The notes under the pieces were generated by a model, which saw only the letters and a program-made list of their open reading frames with translations, was not told the origin of the DNA and searched no databases. From Candidatus Cloacimonadaceae bacterium (lineage in GTDB: Bacteria; Cloacimonadota; Cloacimonadia; Cloacimonadales; Cloacimonadaceae): 24,648 nt of DNA. Position numbers and translations under genes: made by a program. The stretch covers positions 1 through 24,648 of the forward strand of contig JAWOHU010000111.1 in the NCBI GenBank assembly GCA_046485025.1. Direction: 5' to 3'. Shown here in pieces: positions 7,344-17,048 of the stretch (within the stretch, counting starts at the first letter, position 1; the number at the start of each line of letters is the position of its first letter).

Positions 7344-10300
7344 TTATTTCAGGATTATCATTTTACGGGTGAAGTTACCTGAATCTGTTTTCAAACGCAG
7401 TAAGTAAACGCCTCCGGAAACAGGTTTGTTCCGGTTGTCAGTTCCACGCCAGACAAGAGCATGCTGTCCTGCCGATAGTTTTTCATTGACTAAAGTACGC
7501 ACTAATTGTCCTTTCAGATTATATACGCTCAGATTGGCATGTGAACCTGATTTCAGACTGAACCGGATGGTTGTTTCCGGATTGAAGGGATTGGGATAAT
7601 TCTGCTGCAGATATGTATAATTAATGCCCAGATCATCTTCTGCGCCGCTAACCTGAACTACTACAGAGTCACTGGGCTCTGAGTTTCCCATATCGTATAC
7701 GGCAAGCAGATAATAGGTATAGACATCAGTAGCAGAAATGGGTTCACTGAAATATTGGTCATATTCACTTAACTGGCTGACCATTTCGCCGTTACGAAAA
7801 ACTTTATAAGTCTCCAGTTCGGGATAAAGTCCTCTTATAACCGGCGGTTGATTCTGGCTTTCTCCGAGTTTAAGTCTCATTTTCCAGTTATGGTTGATGG
7901 AAAAGCCGGTAGCAAGATCACTCAAGACATCATTTATAATGATTTGATTCGCTCCTGCAGTAGGTGTGTCGGCATCATCAAGCATTAATCCGCCCGTTGT
8001 TTCTATTTCAAAACGGTATGAATCAGTAGGTGAATTTATCGCAAAACCCCAGATCTCAATTTCATTCCACTGCCCCGGGACAGGATCACTTAGCAGATGC
8101 TCATACAACTGAAATTCGTCATCAGGATAGCACTGATAAACTTTCAGGTTATACGGCAGATCGGAAGCAGGAACAAAAGCAACGCTGATGATATCCATAT
8201 TAATACAACTGATCAATTCGCCAGGTGAAAACTTAACACTGGCTTTGTAAGAATCCTGAAACGTAAACGGTACAGAAGTACCTTGGGAATCTTTGCCAAA
8301 GATCTTTTTTCCGTCATCCGGGCGGTCCCAGGTAAGTTGCACCATGCCGTTTTCCACTTCCGCAGCAAGGGCTGTAACCTGATGCAGAACGGGCGGGCCA
8401 GCTACCACTTCATATACCGGAGTCCAGGTCAGACCGTCTTCATACACAGCAGCAACACCATAAGAATATATCTCACCAAATATGACACCTGTGTCGATAA
8501 ATTGAACCTGATTAATCAGATTCGCTACAACTACAGTTTCTTCGCCATAATAACGCTCAATCTTATAGCCCAAAAGGACTCTGTCATCAAGGGACGGCGC
8601 TTCCCAATTGATCTCTACGCCGGCTACACAGCCAATCAGAGTTACGTTCTGGGGTGGAAGGAGCAGACGGTAATAATGAACTTCACTTTCCCAAATACTC
8701 CCATCCTGATATGAGGCAATCAATTGATATCCCACTTCCTCGTCATTACAGACAAGAGAGTCAAGGTAATTGGTTGAGTAGAGAATTGGAGTGGCGGGGA
8801 TGTCATTTATAGAATGTATGATTACTCCATTCCTTTTCAGATTAATCTGGGATAATCCACCATTAATATGATAAGCTTGTATCAGGATGCTGACATAATC
8901 ATCACCATTGTCATCACTTTGGAAGCTTATATAAGGCAGGTTGAGAGGAGAAACCATAACCCGGGCAGCATTGGAGATATTACTTTCTCCCTCGGAATAC
9001 ACTGCTATGACATAGTATAAATGTTCTCCCCAGGCAGGATTTACATCTTCATAAAAGGTAAAAGTCGTGGGTGTTGAATTCAGAAGCTGATGATCTTTGT
9101 AAAGGTTGTAACCAATGAAGCTCCTGTCGTCCCAGGGTTCAAATTCCTGGCCCAGAACCCTGATCATTGCATCCTGCCAGGGAAGATTCTGCCAAAAAGT
9201 ATCACCGTCTGACTTATATACAGTATGACTGGTGCTGACATCTGTAACTCCGATGCTGAACATGCTATCCATAACATATTTTACTCCGATATAAAACGGA
9301 GTTTGGGGTTGAATTGTCAGCCAGAGAGGGAATTGTACCCACTGAGGATATCCCGGAACATCGGGGATGAATTCAAATATCTTAGGTTCTGAGAACAGCG
9401 GTTGATTCAAATCAGGATGACCATCAGTTTCATAAAATCCCACAATTTCAACCTGAGATGATTCCATCGATTTCATCGCCAGTTTAATAGCGCCAATGCT
9501 CAATTCCCAATCATTAACATATCTTGTAACCAGATATTCATATTCGTTAACCATAAAAGGATAATAGAATTCATCAGCAGGTGGACTGTCATGAAATAGC
9601 TGAAGCGCACTATCACCTGAATTTTCATACACCCGATCCCAGCTGATGTTTGCCAGCGGACCATCCATAGTATTATAAACATTTGCAGTCAGACGGTAAG
9701 GTTCCATCAAAGGCTGTTCAGGTACAAGGTAGAAATTATGCATATAACTTTCACCGCTGACAAGGTTAGTTACATATGATGTGCTGTCATCGTATCCGAA
9801 AGCCTGGATGCTTAGGTTGACTAATGAATCAGGTTGAACAGGCAGAGAATAATTACCATTGATGTCAGAACGGGTATAACAGTCCCCGTCAGATATCAAA
9901 GCCCCGGTTACAGGATGCATATCAAAATCCCATATTTCTCCGGTTAACAGAGCAGGAGTTTGATAGTTCTGGTCACGCAGCACGATATCGTCAAAACGCC
10001 AGAACATAAGGTTGGAACTATTGTTACCATATACGCGTAACCTGAACTTAATGGTTCCTGAGCTGATGTAATCAACTAAGTTGTGGCTGAACTCCTGTAG
10101 AGGCATATTTATATTGTGCACACCGGTATTATGCTGTTGCAGAGTTAACCAGTTACTGCCATCCGTACTGATTTCGACTGCCATATGCAAAGTAGTATCA
10201 GCATTCATGGCAGACCCCAATGTTTTATAATCAAGGTAGAGGGCAGTGCAGGATGTTATGTCAAAGCTGCGTGAAACAAGACTTGAATTGAAATCGTTTA

Positions 10301-10484
10301 TTTCAGGCAATCCTGTAAACCTGAGATGAAAGCCATATACATCCATAATTTTCCAGTTCTCACATACCGGCTCACAGGTCCAGCTATTGGTATATAATCT
10401 GCCTGTTTCAAAACCTTCATGCATAAAAACCGCATGCAGGAGAGTGACCATAGTCAATACAGCTATCAGCAGATACTTTTTCAT
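7344..10484 (-). CDS. Large secreted multi-domain protein (MAM/adhesin-like N-domain, carboxypeptidase-regulatory-like domain, FN3-like modules, C-terminal FlgD-Ig/T9SS-type sorting domain)
   Basis: Signal peptide MKKYLLIAVLTMVTLLHA. FN3-like GYNLYK...VIAVY and YKVFRNG...LAVY modules. C-terminus LQQNYPNPFNPETTIRF...YNLKGQLVRTL...WRG...GVYLLRL. SD AAGGAG. Confidence 0.85.
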   Translation of the reverse strand: MKKYLLIAVLTMVTLLHAVFMHEGFETGRLYTNSWTCEPVCENWKIMDVYGFHLRFTGLPEINDFNSSLVSRSFDITSCTALYLDYKTLGSAMNADTTLHMAVEISTDGSNWLTLQQHNTGVHNINMPLQEFSHNLVDYISSGTIKFRLRVYGNNSSNLMFWRFDDIVLRDQNYQTPALLTGEIWDFDMHPVTGALISDGDCYTRSDINGNYSLPVQPDSLVNLSIQAFGYDDSTSYVTNLVSGESYMHNFYLVPEQPLMEPYRLTANVYNTMDGPLANISWDRVYENSGDSALQLFHDSPPADEFYYPFMVNEYEYLVTRYVNDWELSIGAIKLAMKSMESSQVEIVGFYETDGHPDLNQPLFSEPKIFEFIPDVPGYPQWVQFPLWLTIQPQTPFYIGVKYVMDSMFSIGVTDVSTSHTVYKSDGDTFWQNLPWQDAMIRVLGQEFEPWDDRSFIGYNLYKDHQLLNSTPTTFTFYEDVNPAWGEHLYYVIAVYSEGESNISNAARVMVSPLNLPYISFQSDDNGDDYVSILIQAYHINGGLSQINLKRNGVIIHSINDIPATPILYSTNYLDSLVCNDEEVGYQLIASYQDGSIWESEVHYYRLLLPPQNVTLIGCVAGVEINWEAPSLDDRVLLGYKIERYYGEETVVVANLINQVQFIDTGVIFGEIYSYGVAAVYEDGLTWTPVYEVVAGPPVLHQVTALAAEVENGMVQLTWDRPDDGKKIFGKDSQGTSVPFTFQDSYKASVKFSPGELISCINMDIISVAFVPASDLPYNLKVYQCYPDDEFQLYEHLLSDPVPGQWNEIEIWGFAINSPTDSYRFEIETTGGLMLDDADTPTAGANQIIINDVLSDLATGFSINHNWKMRLKLGESQNQPPVIRGLYPELETYKVFRNGEMVSQLSEYDQYFSEPISATDVYTYYLLAVYDMGNSEPSDSVVVQVSGAEDDLGINYTYLQQNYPNPFNPETTIRFSLKSGSHANLSVYNLKGQLVRTLVNEKLSAGQHALVWRGTDNRNKPVSGGVYLLRLKTDSGNFTRKMIILK

Positions 10485-10493
10485 TTTTACTCC

Positions 10494-12941
10494 TTACTTT
10501 ATCAATGTCATCTTATGTGTTAAGTTATAATTGCTGCCTTTAATCTTCATAAAGTAGATTCCGGTGCTGCAGGATGCACCTTTATCATTCTTGCCATCCC
10601 AAATCAGGTAGTTCATTCCTGCTTTCGAAGCGATGGCAGGATATTTTTTGACAACCTGACCTTTGGTGTTGTAAATGACAATTTCGACTGTCTCAGTTTT
10701 AGGTAGATCATAACTAATATTGGTGTTTGCATAAAAGGGATTAGGGTAGTTATCAACTTTAACGCTAAAACTTGGCAAGGGATCATTTTCAACTGAAGTT
10801 GATGAATAATCAAGACAGTAAATGCCATTATTGAAAGGATTCATCCACAGTTTGCCATTTCTGTCCGACTCAACTTGTGTTATATGACTGGTGGGAAGGG
10901 GTGTGTTGCTGCGGTTGTAAACTGCATAGTTCATTCCGTCATAATAAATCAATCCCTGATCAAGGGTTGCCAGCCAGAGACAATCATTTTCATCAACCGT
11001 GAGATCGGTTACGATTATACCTTCCAAATCAGCCACAGAATTCCACGTACTTCCAAAATAGCTGGCAATTCCATTATCAGTGGATGCCCAAATCCTTCCT
11101 GCCGCATCTCGCACTAGAGATGATGTTTCCCAACCAGGAAGACCTGAATTCGTCGGGTTGAAGTATTGCCATTGATAGGAAGCCGAATTGGAAATATCCA
11201 CTTTGTAAACACCAACAACAGTCGACACCCAGACTATGGGTGCGTCGTGCTGTGCCAGAACATCTGTAATTGTATTGGAATATAATCCTGTTACCGTTGT
11301 CATGTTATACTGGGTCCAGGCGATGTTATCATAAACAGCTATCCCGTCTGTTCTGGTACCAGCCCACAAGTGACCGTTGAAATCTTCCTGCGCATTGCTG
11401 GCATAGATAAAAGGATACCCGGAAGTTTCAGTATCATATATCTGCCAAGCTGTATCTGTTTTTCGGCAGATTCCTCCATACATATCGAATAAATCAGCTG
11501 CATTGGAATTAGCATCACCGGTAGCAATAAGTACAGCGCCCTGCCTGTCAAAGCTGACATCATTCACAACATAATTCTGATAATCATTGTAGTTATAATA
11601 TTCCCAGTTATTATCATCAAATCCCATAAGTGAGGTTTGAAGGGGTATATCACCCCAAACGTACCAGCCTGTTCCAAACCAGGTTTTGCCATTATTATCA
11701 GATTTAATATCCCAAATGCTGTTAAGCCCCTTGACCGGAGTATCCGGAAAGATGTCCGGCAGGATAAACTGATTATTTCTGTAACATATCATTGTGTCAT
11801 CATATAGGGCAATCCACATCGTGTTTGTGCAATCCATAAACAGATTCTGAAGCATGATGTCAGTTAAATACCCATCAGGATCAGCAAGAGCAGCCCAGGT
11901 GTCATTCTGGAATTTAAGTATTCCACCAGTGATTGTGTTGATGTATAATTCATCCTGATTGCCGATAGCAACATCCCAATACATATTAGTCAGATCTGTT
12001 GTATATTTTGTGAATGTTGTTCCGTTATATTTGAAAAGCCCGTTATCCACACTGCCCGAAAGACAAAACCAGATATTTCCCTGGCTGTCTTCGACAACAT
12101 TCTTAATATACCAGTCTTTAAGAGGTTCATTCGGATCATCTGCAATCTGTGTATTAAACACATCCCATCCGTTTGCTGTAATATGAAGCAAACCACCACC
12201 TACGTATGGATCGGGATCGACATCGCCGGAAAATGCTATCCATAACGAACCGTCATTGGCTCTGGTCATGGACATGACTGTGTTGGAAGGAAGACTTGAA
12301 TTGGTTTTGGTATAATACTGCCAGCTCTGGTCAGCAGGATTATAACAGGATAGACCGCCATCTGAAAATCCATTCATGGCATAGCCAATCCACAGTTTTC
12401 CTGAACTGTCAAATTCAAGACAGGTAATGTTATTGGAATGGAAAGGAGAATCAGTATAATTCATGGTTGACCAAGTCCCATCACTATGCAGCACACTGAT
12501 CCCTCCACAAAGCTGACTGTCAAAAGCAAATGCAAGGTGCGAAAACCAGTAATTTCCTGATGTATCTCTGGCCATATCAGTTATAAAATTCGAATTCAAT
12601 CCGCTGTTGGCTGTAGTGAGTAACTCGGAATACAGGAGCTGAGGATTGTACCTGATGACTCCAAATGGACTGGCAAACCATTGATAGGTATCGTCTTCAA
12701 AAAAAGATTGATAATTATAGGGATTTGTGTATGCAGTCCAACTGAAATCCGGTCTGTTTGAACTTGCCATCAAATCTTTCTTAACTGCGACTTGTTTACC
12801 GTGTTCATGATATGGACGATACACGGCAGTTGGTATTTGTTTCGAATCTGTAATAGCATACAAACTGATACAAAATGCTAAAATCAGCATAATCATTATA
12901 AAGTGACGGAATTTCCCATGCTTAAATACTAAGCGAGACAT
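10494..12941 (-). CDS. Secreted beta-propeller protein with two-component-regulator-propeller (Reg_prop)-like repeats and a C-terminal FlgD-Ig/T9SS-type domain
   Basis: Many D-x-x-G-x-x-W repeats (DTSGNYW, DSSGKLW, DSQGNIW, DNNGKTW, DFNGHLW, DAAGRIW, DRNGKLW) and NSGL/NSSLP motifs. C-terminus NYPNPF...YNTKGQVV...WDG...GIYFMKI. SD GGAGG. Confidence 0.85.
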   Translation of the reverse strand: MSRLVFKHGKFRHFIMIMLILAFCISLYAITDSKQIPTAVYRPYHEHGKQVAVKKDLMASSNRPDFSWTAYTNPYNYQSFFEDDTYQWFASPFGVIRYNPQLLYSELLTTANSGLNSNFITDMARDTSGNYWFSHLAFAFDSQLCGGISVLHSDGTWSTMNYTDSPFHSNNITCLEFDSSGKLWIGYAMNGFSDGGLSCYNPADQSWQYYTKTNSSLPSNTVMSMTRANDGSLWIAFSGDVDPDPYVGGGLLHITANGWDVFNTQIADDPNEPLKDWYIKNVVEDSQGNIWFCLSGSVDNGLFKYNGTTFTKYTTDLTNMYWDVAIGNQDELYINTITGGILKFQNDTWAALADPDGYLTDIMLQNLFMDCTNTMWIALYDDTMICYRNNQFILPDIFPDTPVKGLNSIWDIKSDNNGKTWFGTGWYVWGDIPLQTSLMGFDDNNWEYYNYNDYQNYVVNDVSFDRQGAVLIATGDANSNAADLFDMYGGICRKTDTAWQIYDTETSGYPFIYASNAQEDFNGHLWAGTRTDGIAVYDNIAWTQYNMTTVTGLYSNTITDVLAQHDAPIVWVSTVVGVYKVDISNSASYQWQYFNPTNSGLPGWETSSLVRDAAGRIWASTDNGIASYFGSTWNSVADLEGIIVTDLTVDENDCLWLATLDQGLIYYDGMNYAVYNRSNTPLPTSHITQVESDRNGKLWMNPFNNGIYCLDYSSTSVENDPLPSFSVKVDNYPNPFYANTNISYDLPKTETVEIVIYNTKGQVVKKYPAIASKAGMNYLIWDGKNDKGASCSTGIYFMKIKGSNYNLTHKMTLIK

Positions 12942-13302
12942 TTTTTCCTCCTTGGTTTTGTTGTAGTATTGATATTATATCTTCCAGCATAAATGGTTTT
13001 TCTTTGAATTGGATATTTTTCAATGATAATAAGTTCTCACTCAAATATGGATTTGGAAGATCACGATAAACCAGAATTCTCATATCGTATCCATCTTTCA
13101 TTGTCCCTAATAAATATTTCCTGTTGCTTTCAGGATCAATATCAAAGTCTATGATTACAGCTTCAATTGCGTCATGATTGTTTTTTATCAGGTTATCAGC
13201 TTCAATGATCGTCGTGAGAAAAATTGATTCGACGTCCATCCGTCTCAGGGCTCTGTGCAGAGACTGTTTTAACAACAAGTCTTGAACTACAATAATAATC
13301 AT
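12922..13302 (-). CDS. Stand-alone, atypical receiver (CheY-like) protein
   Basis: 126 aa with beta1 IIIVVQD, beta3 AVIID (D52) and K102-P103 (EKPF). The first acidic residue is Q and the beta4 Thr/Ser is absent. SD AGGAG. Confidence 0.7.
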   Translation of the reverse strand: MIIIVVQDLLLKQSLHRALRRMDVESIFLTTIIEADNLIKNNHDAIEAVIIDFDIDPESNRKYLLGTMKDGYDMRILVYRDLPNPYLSENLLSLKNIQFKEKPFMLEDIISILQQNQGGKNVSLSI

Positions 13303-13451
13303 TTTTTAAACTCCTTTGCTTTTCATATAAAACAAAAGTTGTTCTCAGAAAATCATATTACGCCGATACTTCCTATCTTTATGATAGAAATACATTTAGC
13401 CTATGAGATACACAAAATTCATTATATTCATTATGACTTACTGTATTATTG

Positions 13452-13462
13452 TGGACAGTCCA
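13452..13462. promoter_or_regulatory. Perfect palindrome TGGAC-A-GTCCA in the divergent intergenic region; candidate operator/UAS
   Basis: Seen directly; a half-site TGGACA recurs near 13508. Function is unproven. Confidence 0.3.
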
Positions 13463-13558
13463 TTATGAACTATGGTGAGCAATAACGTGGTTTTTTTAAG
13501 AAATCTCTGGACAAAAGATGGATTGCTGTTTTTGAGACTTTTATATCTATAATAACGG

Positions 13559-15214
13559 ATGATAGAAATGCAGCAAAGAAAAGTAAAAGAAAACAGGAAT
13601 GTTATCAAACGGGCTGAGACATTACTAAAAAATGCTTCTGAAGCTTGGAAAAGCGGTAATTACAGCGAAGGCAAGACATATGCGGAGGCAGCCTTAGAGC
13701 TCGGAATTATCGAAAGAAATTTAACGATTCAGGCTCATGCATCACATATTTTGGGGACAATCTATGCTTATCTTGATGCCTATGACCTGGCTTTGGAAAA
13801 TTATCTGAAAGCCCAACGTCTGAACGATAAATTGGGTGAAAAAACCAGGCAAGCTGAAGCCTTGAACAGCATGGGCGATATCTACATCAAGCTATCCGAT
13901 ATTCCTAAAGCTACTGAGTGTTTTGAAAAAGCCCATATGTTGTATCCGGAATATGAGCGGTGCATTAATAATCTTGGCTACCTGAAAATGTTAAAAGGTG
14001 AGTTGGATGAAGCAATCCGCTTTTACAGGATGGCGTGCAAGATTTCTGCATCAAACGGCAGTCTGCGCAGCGAGATAATCTCTCATATCAATATATCTGA
14101 TGCTTTATGTAAACTGGGTAAACCAGAGCTTGCCCTCGAAGAACTTAAGGCTGCAGATATTCTTATAAATAAAGGAAAAATTGAAACTCCCAATGAAATC
14201 AGGTGCGCTCTTCTTCTCAACCTGTCGTATGTAAAACAAATGCTCGACGATGATGTGAATGCCTTGTCTCATCTGAACGATGCATTAGATCTTTCTCAAA
14301 CTGCTCAGCTAAAAGATTACCAACAAAAATCATTTCATATGCTGGCAAGCTATAACGCGGCAAAAGAAAACTGGAAACAGGCTTATTTCAATCTGATGGA
14401 ATTCACAAATTTAAATACGCAGATACTTAGCAGCAATATGATCCAGAAATTAAGCAATCTCCAGAATTTCTATGCCAAGGAAACCCGCGATCTGATCACC
14501 ATGAATCTCACAGAAAAATCAGCCCGGCTGGCTACACTTGGGATTTTATCCACCAGCATAACCCATGAGTTGAACCAACCTCTCTCAGCAATTCGTATCT
14601 CCTCGGAAAGTATACTGTACTGGATTAAAAAGGAATCTATCGTAATGCCGATGAATTTTAACGTTGAATTGAATCATATCCTCGAAGGGATAAAACGCAT
14701 AGAAAATGTTGTTCGAATTATCCGGCAGTTCTGGAATTCCGGCAGAGATTCAGTTCTAGTCCGGTGTGATCTTGGCCTCACGATAGACAAATGCATCAGT
14801 CTGGTATCCCGCAGGATGTTTGCACACGGAATCACCCTTGAATATGATAATCCAGCTGAGAATTTCTATCTGGAAGTATCTGAGATTCACCTGCAGCAGA
14901 TTATTATAAATCTATTAAACCATTGTATTAATCTGCTGGAAAACTCTCCTGCCAAACATAAAATCCTGTTAATCAAAACGGATAATAACAAAGGCAGAAA
15001 CCTACTTACAGTTATGCAGGATGGTTCACAGATTACTGCTGAAATGCTCAGCCGGTTATTTAATCCTTTTAGTTCTGAAGATGTTAACAATGACAATGAA
15101 ATGGACATTGCAATTGTAAAACATCTTTGTGATAATTACCAGTACAAGCTGAATCCCATACAGCAAAAAAAACAGTTTTGGGGGTTTGTTATTGATTTTG
15201 GAGCAAACAGATGA
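13559..15214 (+). CDS. Cytoplasmic TPR-repeat histidine-kinase-like protein with a degenerate ATP-binding domain (pseudokinase or phosphotransferase)
   Basis: N-terminal TPR-like helices (LGTIYAYLDAYDLALENYLKA; NNLGYL) and no TM helix. H-box THELNQPL (H336) is intact. N-box is NLLNHC, G1 is MQDGSQ, F-box is LFNPF and G2 is DNEMDIAI. Confidence 0.85.
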   Translation: MIEMQQRKVKENRNVIKRAETLLKNASEAWKSGNYSEGKTYAEAALELGIIERNLTIQAHASHILGTIYAYLDAYDLALENYLKAQRLNDKLGEKTRQAEALNSMGDIYIKLSDIPKATECFEKAHMLYPEYERCINNLGYLKMLKGELDEAIRFYRMACKISASNGSLRSEIISHINISDALCKLGKPELALEELKAADILINKGKIETPNEIRCALLLNLSYVKQMLDDDVNALSHLNDALDLSQTAQLKDYQQKSFHMLASYNAAKENWKQAYFNLMEFTNLNTQILSSNMIQKLSNLQNFYAKETRDLITMNLTEKSARLATLGILSTSITHELNQPLSAIRISSESILYWIKKESIVMPMNFNVELNHILEGIKRIENVVRIIRQFWNSGRDSVLVRCDLGLTIDKCISLVSRRMFAHGITLEYDNPAENFYLEVSEIHLQQIIINLLNHCINLLENSPAKHKILLIKTDNNKGRNLLTVMQDGSQITAEMLSRLFNPFSSEDVNNDNEMDIAIVKHLCDNYQYKLNPIQQKKQFWGFVIDFGANR

Positions 15215-16656
15215 AAGTGCTGATAATTGACAGTGATCTCTTATTTGCGCAATCAATAGGTAATTTCCTTTCCGTCCAGTTGGGGCATAGCACCCGTCAT
15301 TGCACCAGAATCGAAGAAGGTCTTAATATCTTTGATGAATATGTGCCTGACCTTGTCATAACTGAGTTAATGATGCCCGGGATGGATGGTTTTGACCTGA
15401 TAGATAAACTGCGTTCTCCTGATAGTAAGTATGATGCAGGTATTTTAATTCTCTGCGGAGAGGGTGATAATGAAGCCCAGATCAAAGCTTTGGAAGCAGG
15501 TGCTGATGATGTTTTGTGTAAACCAATTCCACTTGAACTGCTTGCTATCAGAATTAAGAGACTGGAAGAAATTCTTTCGGCAAGACATAAACTGGTAAAA
15601 CTCAGCACTGATTTCGAATCTGAATTGCAGTTGAGGCTGCAAGACCTAAAAACCGCTCTTGGGAATCTGCAGAAGGAATACCAGAGCGAGTTGGGATTCA
15701 GCGGTTTAGGAGTATACAGCGATACGATGAGGCAGATTACTCAGCTCTGTCTGCGAATTCATAAAGATCGCGATTTACCGGTATTGATAACAGGTGAAAC
15801 CGGAACAGGTAAAGAACTGATTGCCAGGCTGATACATTATGGAGATGAAAACAGTAATCTGCCTTTTATTTCTCTTAATTGTTCTGCCATTCCTGCCACT
15901 CTTTTTGAAAGTGAACTTTTCGGTTATGAACGTGGAGCCTTTACAGGAAGCAACCGCGAAGGTAAAATTGGCAAATTGGAAATGGCTAATGGCGGAACAC
16001 TTTTTCTGGATGAGATTGGAGACCTGCCTTTGGACCTGCAACCCAAGCTGTTGCGTGTTATCCAGGAACAGGAAATGTACCGTGTAGGTGGAACCAAGAA
16101 AATACCCTTAGACATACGTTTTCTCTTTGCTACTCATCAGGATCTGCATAAATCCATCCTGGATAAAACTTTCCGTCAGGACCTTTTCTACCGCATTTCG
16201 ACAATTTATATAAATATCCCGCCCCTGCGTGAACGGAAGGAGGAGATCATTCCCCTGTCCCAGTTGTTCCTCAAACAAATCTCTGTTAAAAAACATATGC
16301 CTTTGAAATTTCTCAAAGAAGAAACAGCACAGTTAATTAAGGAATATGACTGGCCCGGTAATGTTAGGGAACTGCTTGGTGCCATGGAAAGGGCTTATCT
16401 GATTACCGATGAAGTTGAGATTAGCCCTGATAACTTCAGTTTCTTGTTGCCCAATTCTCCCCTGAATCTAAATTTCTCCTCACGTCGAAAACTCTTCCTG
16501 GAATTACCTGAAGCAGGATTAACTCTCTCCGATTTTCAGACCAGGATTATACAAAAAGTTCTGGAACTGCATAATAACAATAAATCTCAAAGTGCCCGAT
16601 ATCTGGGAATATCATTGAACAGACTAAAACGGCTGCTGCAAAGCAAACAAATCTGA
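15211..16656 (+). CDS. NtrC-family sigma54-dependent enhancer-binding protein with an aspartate-less receiver
   Basis: Receiver LVITELMMPGMDG (E52), Walker A GETGTGKE, GAFTGS, Walker B FLDEI, RQDLFYR, WPGNVREL and a Fis-type HTH. ATGA overlap with the kinase-like gene. Confidence 0.93.
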   Translation: MKVLIIDSDLLFAQSIGNFLSVQLGHSTRHCTRIEEGLNIFDEYVPDLVITELMMPGMDGFDLIDKLRSPDSKYDAGILILCGEGDNEAQIKALEAGADDVLCKPIPLELLAIRIKRLEEILSARHKLVKLSTDFESELQLRLQDLKTALGNLQKEYQSELGFSGLGVYSDTMRQITQLCLRIHKDRDLPVLITGETGTGKELIARLIHYGDENSNLPFISLNCSAIPATLFESELFGYERGAFTGSNREGKIGKLEMANGGTLFLDEIGDLPLDLQPKLLRVIQEQEMYRVGGTKKIPLDIRFLFATHQDLHKSILDKTFRQDLFYRISTIYINIPPLRERKEEIIPLSQLFLKQISVKKHMPLKFLKEETAQLIKEYDWPGNVRELLGAMERAYLITDEVEISPDNFSFLLPNSPLNLNFSSRRKLFLELPEAGLTLSDFQTRIIQKVLELHNNNKSQSARYLGISLNRLKRLLQSKQI

Positions 16657-16840: not shown

Positions 16841-16916
16841 GCATCTTTAGCTCAGCTGGTAGAGCAACTGACTCTTAATCAGTGGGTCCGGGGTTCGAGT
16901 CCCCGAAGATGTACCA
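16841..16916 (+). tRNA. tRNA-Lys (anticodon CTT)
   Basis: Cloverleaf: acceptor GCATCTT/AAGATGT, D-arm GCTC/GAGC, anticodon arm ACTGA-CTCTTAA-TCAGT, T-arm CGGGG-TTCGAGT-CCCCG, and an encoded ACCA end; 76 nt. Confidence 0.98.
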
Positions 16917-16967: not shown

Positions 16968-17013
16968 AGCGGTAATTTGCTCTTTGCTCCGCTTTGTAAA
17001 TGTGCTAAAGTGC
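16968..17013 (+). ncRNA. SAM-II/SAM-V-like riboswitch aptamer (H-type pseudoknot) upstream of metK
   Basis: P1 AGCGG/CCGCT (16968-72/16989-93); loop 1 TAATTT; P2 GC(T)CTTTGC (16979-87) with GC(T)AAAG(T)GC (17004-13), leaving U17006 unpaired; loop 3 TTGTAAATGT. This matches the remembered SAM-II pattern UGAUUU...UUGC...AAAU...GCUAAA, and the downstream gene is SAM synthetase. Confidence 0.75.
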
Positions 17014-17022
17014 TTTTTTCAG

Positions 17023-17048
17023 AGCCGGCTTTAGCGTCGGCTTTTTTT
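17023..17048 (+). terminator. Intrinsic terminator in the metK leader (riboswitch expression platform)
   Basis: Stem AGCCGGC/GTCGGCT, loop TTTAGC, then a T7 tract, ending 22 nt before the metK start. Confidence 0.75.

Follow-up and report, generated by a model that had tools for sequence, protein, structure and literature searches.

We analysed a stretch of 24,648 nucleotides (hereafter the window) from a Candidatus Cloacimonadaceae bacterium (contig JAWOHU010000111.1), on whose forward strand a gene at 13559..15214 encodes what we call a pseudo-histidine kinase, or pseudo-kinase: a protein laid out as a histidine kinase, in which residues for ATP binding have been replaced. Its stop codon is overlapped by the start codon of a gene for a sigma54 activator (ATGA), and on its other side a control region separates it from a divergent, leftward operon which encodes a small protein with a receiver fold and two proteins bearing the sorting domain of the type IX secretion system (T9SS).

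The pseudo-kinase: motifs, fold and conservation

The gene is a single intact open reading frame of 551 residues (the gene caller began at Met4, which gives 548 residues), and the protein consists of a TPR repeat region, a helical (coiled-coil) linker, a DHp domain and a CA domain, the so-called TPR-DHp-CA layout. The TPR region covers approximately residues 20-290 (13616..14428, on the forward strand like the other domains) and is matched by the Pfam families TPR_12, TPR_1, TPR_2 and TPR_8. There is no hydrophobic segment in the protein, the highest Kyte-Doolittle mean over 19 residues being 1.25, and the pseudo-kinase is therefore cytoplasmic (soluble). The DHp domain, a four-helix bundle at residues 321-395 (14519..14743), carries the H-box ITHELNQPLSAIRIS, in which the codon of H336 occupies positions 14564-14566. 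A degenerate CA domain of the Bergerat fold lies at 14846..15205, as recognized by motif comparison, an AlphaFold2 model and Foldseek. The coordinates under study, 14564-15115, correspond to residues 336-519 of the 551-residue protein.

All the motifs quoted in a first-pass annotation of this DNA are present as it gave them. The H-box reads ITHELNQPL, with H336 in place, and the F-box LFNPF is retained (residues 500-504, 15056-15070). The N-box reads N451-L-L-N-H455-C: its first Asn is kept and a His (H455, 14921-14923) occupies the position of the Mg-ligand Asn. The G1 box reads Q487-D-G489-S-Q491 (15017-15031), with Gln487 at the position of the adenine Asp and with the second Gly gone, and the G2 box reads D512-N-E514-M-D516 (15092-15106) and contains no glycine. 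In the phmmer alignment to HK853 (2c2a/3dge), H455 is matched with the second Asn of the HK853 motif NLLNN, and Q487 with the Asp of DNGIG; in the GHKL fold these two residues ligate Mg and bind adenine, respectively. As the Mg-ligand Asn, the adenine-binding Asp and the phosphate-binding glycines are all lost, so that three ligand-contact motifs are gone, canonical ATP binding by the CA domain appears very unlikely. It had been stated that every ATP-binding motif was lost; this is true of the essential ligands and slightly overstated for the rest, since N451, G489 and the F-box remain. Among the features of a class I sensor histidine kinase, the phospho-accepting His in the H-box is present, while the N-box Asn, the DxGxG of G1 and the GxGLG of G2 are absent, and the assignment of the protein to the pseudokinases was correct.

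The comparison of profile scores suggested by the same annotation gave the following: Pfam HisKA gives 24.1 bits, just under its cut-off of 26.9, and HATPase_c gives 31.6 bits against a cut-off of 26.4, in a match spanning only positions 3-88 of the 111 of the profile. In its own genome the pseudo-kinase is the lowest of the 16 HATPase_c matches (35 bits versus 41-117) and the sole kinase core without the canonical N/D/G pattern. Among the 191 distinct kinase cores of all the loci that we fetched, 150 show the full canonical pattern, and the loss pattern of the pseudo-kinase is confined to its own clade. We built an AlphaFold2 model of residues 300-551, which consists of a helical hairpin (DHp) and an alpha/beta sandwich (CA), the predicted local confidence (pLDDT) being 85-91 in the core of the CA domain. 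The best Foldseek matches of this model are ordinary kinase cores, namely ZraS, FixL chimeras, HK853 and RetS. As modelled, then, the pseudo-kinase is a protein that keeps the fold and loses only the chemistry.

We collected about 13 clusters of orthologues at 46-57% identity, all of them from Candidatus Cloacimonadota. H336 is kept in the 13 clusters and in nine fetched loci, all of which lack the Asn of the N-box, the Asp and the second Gly of G1 and the glycines of G2, which is what the first-pass annotation had proposed to look for; no close orthologue has intact boxes. The replacements are H, Y or F for the N-box Asn, Q or T for the G1 Asp, and x-E-M/L-G/D for the G2 box. Nearly all of residues 334-348, in the first helix of the DHp domain, are invariant across 14 sequences, and in the former ATP pocket E514, G489 and P503 are invariant throughout the clade, N488 (N/D) and N502 being nearly so. 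Among relatives that keep the boxes, even the closest share no more than 25-31% identity with the pseudo-kinase: these are 18 TPR kinases of the same architecture, with canonical NxxxN, DNGxG, FDPF and GMGLGL. The pseudo-kinase clade is monophyletic (SH-like approximate likelihood ratio test, SH-aLRT, 100), has a long stem and is nested within the canonical TPR kinases of the same phylum.

The ratio of nonsynonymous to synonymous substitution rates (dN/dS), calculated between the orthologous loci L021 and L022 (dS >1), is 0.075 overall, 0.087 for the CA domain, 0.096 for the TPR region and 0.012 for the DHp domain, whose mean pairwise identity within the clade is 81%. The dead CA domain is clearly maintained by purifying selection. 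The mean pairwise identities are 0.45 (CA) and 0.53 (TPR) in the pseudo-kinase clade and 0.45 (CA) and 0.26 (TPR) in the canonical relatives, and the constraint on the CA domain relative to the TPR region is accordingly weaker in the former than in the latter. Together, the 551-residue frame, the sharing of the losses by all the orthologues and the purifying selection uphold the earlier view of a targeted loss in a full-length protein and not of a truncation. Recent decay was rejected in view of the intact frame at such divergence in about 13 clusters and of the low dN/dS; an assembly artefact was rejected in view of the orthologue conservation and, again, of dN/dS. One locus, L024 (JAJOKA010000042.1), has a broken pseudo-kinase frame together with a truncated small receiver; because the coverage of this contig is only about 2.6x, the disruption is probably an assembly error and not a true pseudogene.

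The activator, the small receiver and the five-gene module

The partner gene (15211..16656, forward strand) encodes a sigma54 enhancer-binding activator of 481 residues with the organization receiver-AAA+-HTH (Pfam Sigma54_activat, 212 bits), the AAA+ domain being intact and followed by an HTH_8 domain. The TPR input and the sigma54 partner named in the first-pass annotation are hence both real, as their Pfam matches attest. In the receiver of the activator we read D7-S8-D9, a Glu at the acceptor position (Glu52, 15364-15366), Cys82 and K104-P105; in the alignment to PleD, E52 lies under the phospho-acceptor D53. Nine of the ten distinct activator orthologues have an acceptor Glu, D/E-S-D for the acidic pair and Cys or Ser for the Thr of beta4. 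A basal subclade (P0013 type) has N-N-E, keeps the acceptor Asp and has Leu at the Thr position. Where a neighbouring activator could be read beside the canonical relatives (16 of the 18), it is always of the form DD..D..T..K. Word-seeded protein searches with the activator receiver region, and likewise with the small receiver described below, returned no orthologues; the orthologues of both were taken from the contigs encoding kinase orthologues.

By the usual rule, the acidic pair is formed by the two acids directly after beta1. Because the register of the pair was set by this rule, and because a shift of one residue would leave D9/E9 of the activator as a possible metal ligand, we go no further than to say that the Glu-form receivers very likely cannot be phosphorylated and that the Asn-Asn form of the basal subclade likely cannot. 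The activator has co-degenerated with the kinase, and its changes, as read from the sequences, are co-ordinated and non-random. A prediction of the complex between the DHp-CA dimer and the activator receiver gave a score of 0.18 (mark 0.32), which weighs neither for nor against binding. The receiver in the window has an acceptor Glu, keeps the first acidic residue and has lost the second; this combination is the commonest one among aspartate-less receivers (PMC4395418), and the corresponding substitution D54E in NtrC is mentioned there as activating, with reference to Klose 1993.

The small receiver-fold protein, which we call SR, has 126 residues and is encoded divergently from the kinase gene (12922..13302, reverse strand). 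It has no Pfam match, the Response_reg model included, and was recognized by AlphaFold2, hhalign and Foldseek. Aligned by hhalign to a receiver profile it reaches a probability of 85% (E-value 6.6e-6), AlphaFold2 models it as a (beta-alpha)5 CheY fold at a pLDDT of 82, and its Foldseek matches are receivers and the receiver-like wing domain of LdcI. Five residues, D8, D52, D54, K102 and P103, do not vary; at position 80 seven of the eight sequences have Ser or Thr and that of the window has Arg, and the first acidic residue is missing. SR was found solely beside members of the pseudo-kinase clade.

The next gene, whose start overlaps the stop codon of SR, encodes a Reg_prop beta-propeller protein of 815 residues (10494..12941, reverse strand); the last gene of the leftward operon encodes a secreted protein of 1046 residues (7344..10484, reverse strand). 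Both have a T9SS sorting domain according to Pfam, C-terminal in the propeller protein. In the orthologues with enough context, SR is always followed by a Reg_prop propeller of 811-815 residues and then by a protein of 1044-1048 residues, both sorted by T9SS, and the five-gene module (pseudo-kinase, activator, SR and the two T9SS-secreted proteins) is kept wherever context exists. Three loci of canonical TPR kinases (L026, L027 and L028) also adjoin T9SS-sorted genes, with cleaved adhesin, carboxypeptidase-regulatory-like and M14 peptidase domains. As the canonical relatives too are neighbours of T9SS cargo genes, this suggests that the whole family of TPR kinases and sigma54 activators regulates secreted surface proteins in Cloacimonadota.

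We compared the 256 bp control region between the two divergent operons (13303..13558, no strand assigned) with those of L183, L184, L186, L187, L021, L002 and L003. In the window, a palindrome, TGGACAGTCCA, occupies 13452-13462 of this region, and the minus strand has an octamer, TTGTCCAG, at 13507-13514. A palindrome TGGAC(N)GTCCA occurs at a fixed distance of 160 nucleotides from the start codon of SR in three orthologues, and the octamer approximately 205-213 nucleotides from it in four. Five orthologues have a sigma54-like element TGGC(A/T)C-N5-TTG(A/G) approximately 40 nucleotides upstream of the SR gene, and L021 has TGGCAG-N5-TCGC at 73 nucleotides; these matches are relaxed and not of the consensus type. 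From their sequences, the elements of the control region are probably binding sites of the activator together with its target promoter. At the gathering threshold of Rfam, the whole window yielded only a tRNA (16841-16913, forward strand); no SAM-riboswitch family passed the Rfam threshold at 16968-17048, and Rfam and repeat searches found nothing relevant in or near the pseudo-kinase gene. Among public sequencing runs only one, from a sediment metagenome, contains any part of the locus, and no RNA sequencing run containing the locus was found.

Binding or phosphotransfer

Because the kinase has lost its ATP residues and the activator its phospho-aspartate pocket, the former phosphorylation switch is probably now a matter of protein-protein binding. 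We lean, with moderate confidence, towards control of the activator through stoichiometric binding by the pseudo-kinase, in the manner of NifL with NifA or of DivL with DivK. The module would derive from a canonical ancestor made of a TPR kinase and an NtrC-type activator, between which phosphotransfer would have been abandoned. The DHp surface is the surface on which receivers usually dock; strongly conserved as it is here, and possibly together with a remodelled face of the CA domain, it would bind the receiver of the activator, SR or both stoichiometrically. The TPR domain would sense protein partners, and this input would decide whether the Glu-bearing, "always-on-like" activator assembles and fires. 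The likely targets would be sigma54-type promoters of the divergent operon, that is of SR and the two T9SS-secreted proteins.

Several observations weigh against such a regulation by binding, which is proposed from sequence and by analogy. Not only H336 is invariant: the catalytic-looking E337, N339 and Q340 are as well, and binding alone need not require them. The acceptor Asp is still there in the activator of the basal subclade, and SR, with its D8, D52 and K102 and in seven of eight sequences a Ser or Thr at position 80, might be phosphorylatable. On the side of transcription, the consensus TGGCAC-N5-TTGC occurs in the window at chance frequency and is absent from the control region, where there is no clear sigma54-like element, and rpoN (Sigma54_DBD) was not found in the organism's own assembly (G000, 78% complete) despite the sigma54 activator that it encodes. 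We note that rpoN is present in five of five relatives, both module-carrying genomes among them, and that in one of these (G010) it lies on the same contig as the module, approximately 10 kb away. Last, the half-kinase pairs of related Cloacimonadota indicate that a His-only protein of this kinase family can remain within phospho-signalling.

These pairs are of the following kind. In G039 (L181:5408-10196) and G029 (L182:5593-10378), two genera of one family different from that of the window, we found an operon of three genes encoding two kinase-like proteins, HKa and HKb, and a canonical activator. HKa keeps the His and has lost N, G1 and G2; HKb has Tyr for His and keeps N, G1 and G2. In G009 (L069:1338-5650), a protein of 395 residues with the His kept and the rest degenerate, a canonical activator and a TPR kinase with Ser for His and an intact CA domain stand together; this pair arose separately from that of G039 and G029. 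Strong degeneracy among the 191 cores is found only in the window clade and in these two other small Cloacimonadota groups. Pairs of the HKa/HKb type could be complementary halves able to trans-phosphorylate, in which case each may be a natural heterodimeric split kinase.

The main alternative, which we regard as possible, if less likely, is that the protein supplies the histidine to a phosphorelay or split kinase. H336 would still receive phosphate, either from an ATP-competent kinase encoded elsewhere or from another receiver by back-transfer, and would give it to, or remove it from, Asp52 of SR; the protein would be a transferase of the ChpT type or a dedicated phosphatase, with the activator controlled indirectly. 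In favour of this, the His and the whole H-box are invariant, SR has a CheY fold in which D8, D52, S/T80 and K102 occupy the places usual in its topology, complementary pairs are seen in G039, G029 and G009, the window clade is sister to HKa (weakly, with an SH-aLRT of 87 and long branches), and ChpT is a case of a transferase built from a DHp domain and a CA domain that is dead (PMC3433190). Against it, no dedicated partner kinase, His-less or otherwise, was found in the module, in the own genome (78% complete) or in two genomes that are nearly complete and have the module, G010 (99%) and G019 (92%), and none of the three showed a His-less, ATP-competent paralogue of the HKb kind. Moreover, the adjoining and translationally coupled activator cannot plausibly accept phosphate, and SR in the window has Arg at the Thr/Ser position, is without the first acidic residue and is missed by the Pfam Response_reg model. 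The first-pass annotation had proposed a ChpT-like phosphotransferase acting on both receivers; this is not supported as stated, for the activator receiver is a very unlikely acceptor and only SR has a plausible set of acceptor residues.

The regulation by binding that we prefer also has a stronger version, which we judge distinctly unlikely in all its parts taken together. The module would be wholly free of phosphorylation and would have come, perhaps, through a split-kinase stage, a stage with His-only and ATP-only paralogues which may still be seen in related Cloacimonadota. The ATP half would have been lost, the activator would then have fixed a phosphomimetic Glu, and His336 would now contact Glu52 or Asp52 of SR, the geometry of phosphotransfer being frozen into a TPR-regulated complex that gates the sigma54 transcription of T9SS cargo genes.

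A CA domain that still binds some small ligand, nucleotide or other, by a non-canonical route, as some eukaryotic pseudokinases do or NifL in its ADP sensing, is quite improbable in our estimate; it would then sense energy status or the ligand, or would retain a weak autokinase activity. The Bergerat fold is indeed predicted with good confidence, the length of the lid is roughly kept, E514, N/D488-G489 and N502-P503 are conserved by the clade in the former pocket, and NifL is regulated through ADP binding (PMC12998190). Against this, three independent ligand-contact motifs were lost together, the residues that replaced them vary among orthologues (H/Y/F; Q/T; G/D), and the partner receiver very probably cannot use a phosphoryl group. 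As for a decaying relic without function, the faster evolution of the CA domain relative to the TPR region than in canonical relatives and the one broken orthologue, L024, from a 2.6x-coverage assembly, would speak for it, but the intact frames, the dN/dS of the whole gene and of the CA domain at dS >1, the five-gene synteny and the co-ordinated, non-random changes in the partner make it hardly credible, and the conservation data have effectively refuted it already.

Known systems and significance

The closest functional analogue of the pseudo-kinase and its activator would be the NifL-NifA pair of Azotobacter and Klebsiella. NifL does not phosphorylate, nor does it hydrolyse ATP; by means of its DH and GHKL domains it sequesters the sigma54 activator NifA (PMC12998190). 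As is proposed here, a non-phosphorylating kinase-like protein with DHp-like and GHKL domains is encoded by a gene adjoining that of a sigma54 activator (PMC12998190). NifL, however, has a working nucleotide pocket, used for ADP sensing, a PAS/FAD input and a partner, NifA, with a GAF domain, whereas the protein of the window has lost the pocket residues, takes its input through a TPR region, is without a PAS domain and has a partner with a degenerate receiver. The pseudo-kinase is not a member of the NifL family TIGR02938 (23 bits against a cut-off of 242).

In the DivL-DivK system of Caulobacter, a pseudokinase DHp-CA core is a binding sensor for a single-domain receiver and signals back to the N-terminal domains (PMC4211667; PMC12963549). 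The parallel with DivL drawn by the first-pass annotation fails at the histidine: DivL has lost it and has Tyr in its place, whereas H336 is invariant here, Tyr or Ser for the His being seen solely in paralogues from other genomes. DivL is moreover PAS-based and membrane-anchored and controls the kinase CckA, where the pseudo-kinase has a sigma54 partner. ChpT, also of Caulobacter, combines a DHp domain with a functional His and a Bergerat-fold domain unable to bind ATP (PMC3433190), which the pseudo-kinase matches at the level of sequence only. ChpT is a small protein of two domains without a sensor region; helical turns stand in for the lid, and the receivers that it serves are fully phosphorylatable; the protein of the window has a TPR module of 290 residues and a cognate receiver without an acceptor Asp. 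As partners of the ChpT type, the activator receivers (Glu52 with Ser8, or N-N) do not qualify, and SR keeps D8, D52 and K102 but is without the first acidic residue and has Arg80. Sequence and fold searches with the protein of the window returned ordinary kinases, and ChpT was not among the matches.

PsmA of Streptomyces and RetS of Pseudomonas are kinase folds acting by protein contacts and not by autophosphorylation (PMC12963549), in which they resemble what we propose here. PsmA differs in that neither the His nor the ATP motifs remain, and RetS, some of whose cores are among our Foldseek matches, in heteromerizing with GacS; a sigma54 activator is the partner of neither. Among aspartate-less receivers, ChxR, HP1043 and RitR are mostly orphans, while the degenerate receiver of the window has kept its coupling to a kinase homologue that degenerated with it. 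Pseudo-kinases of the histidine-kinase superfamily (PMC12963549) and aspartate-less receivers (PMC4395418) were thus both already known. What is new is a cognate pair that is co-degenerate and still coupled, that keeps the His and combines input through TPR repeats with output through sigma54, and whose canonical and half-kinase relatives document plausible steps.

Pseudo-histidine kinases (DivL, PsmA, NifL, ChpT) and aspartate-less receivers are known mostly as isolated cases. Here a kinase-regulator pair is, as far as its residues indicate, chemically dead on both sides, yet adjacent, translationally coupled and strongly selected, and the canonical relatives and half-kinase pairs of neighbouring lineages record possible intermediate steps. 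One family therefore makes it testable how a phosphotransfer interface becomes a stable regulatory interface and why the His is kept. The labels "sensor histidine kinase" and "response regulator" should be applied with caution to such genes in uncultured Cloacimonadota. Finally, in this module one may have a regulator of the surface proteins that Cloacimonadota secrete by T9SS.

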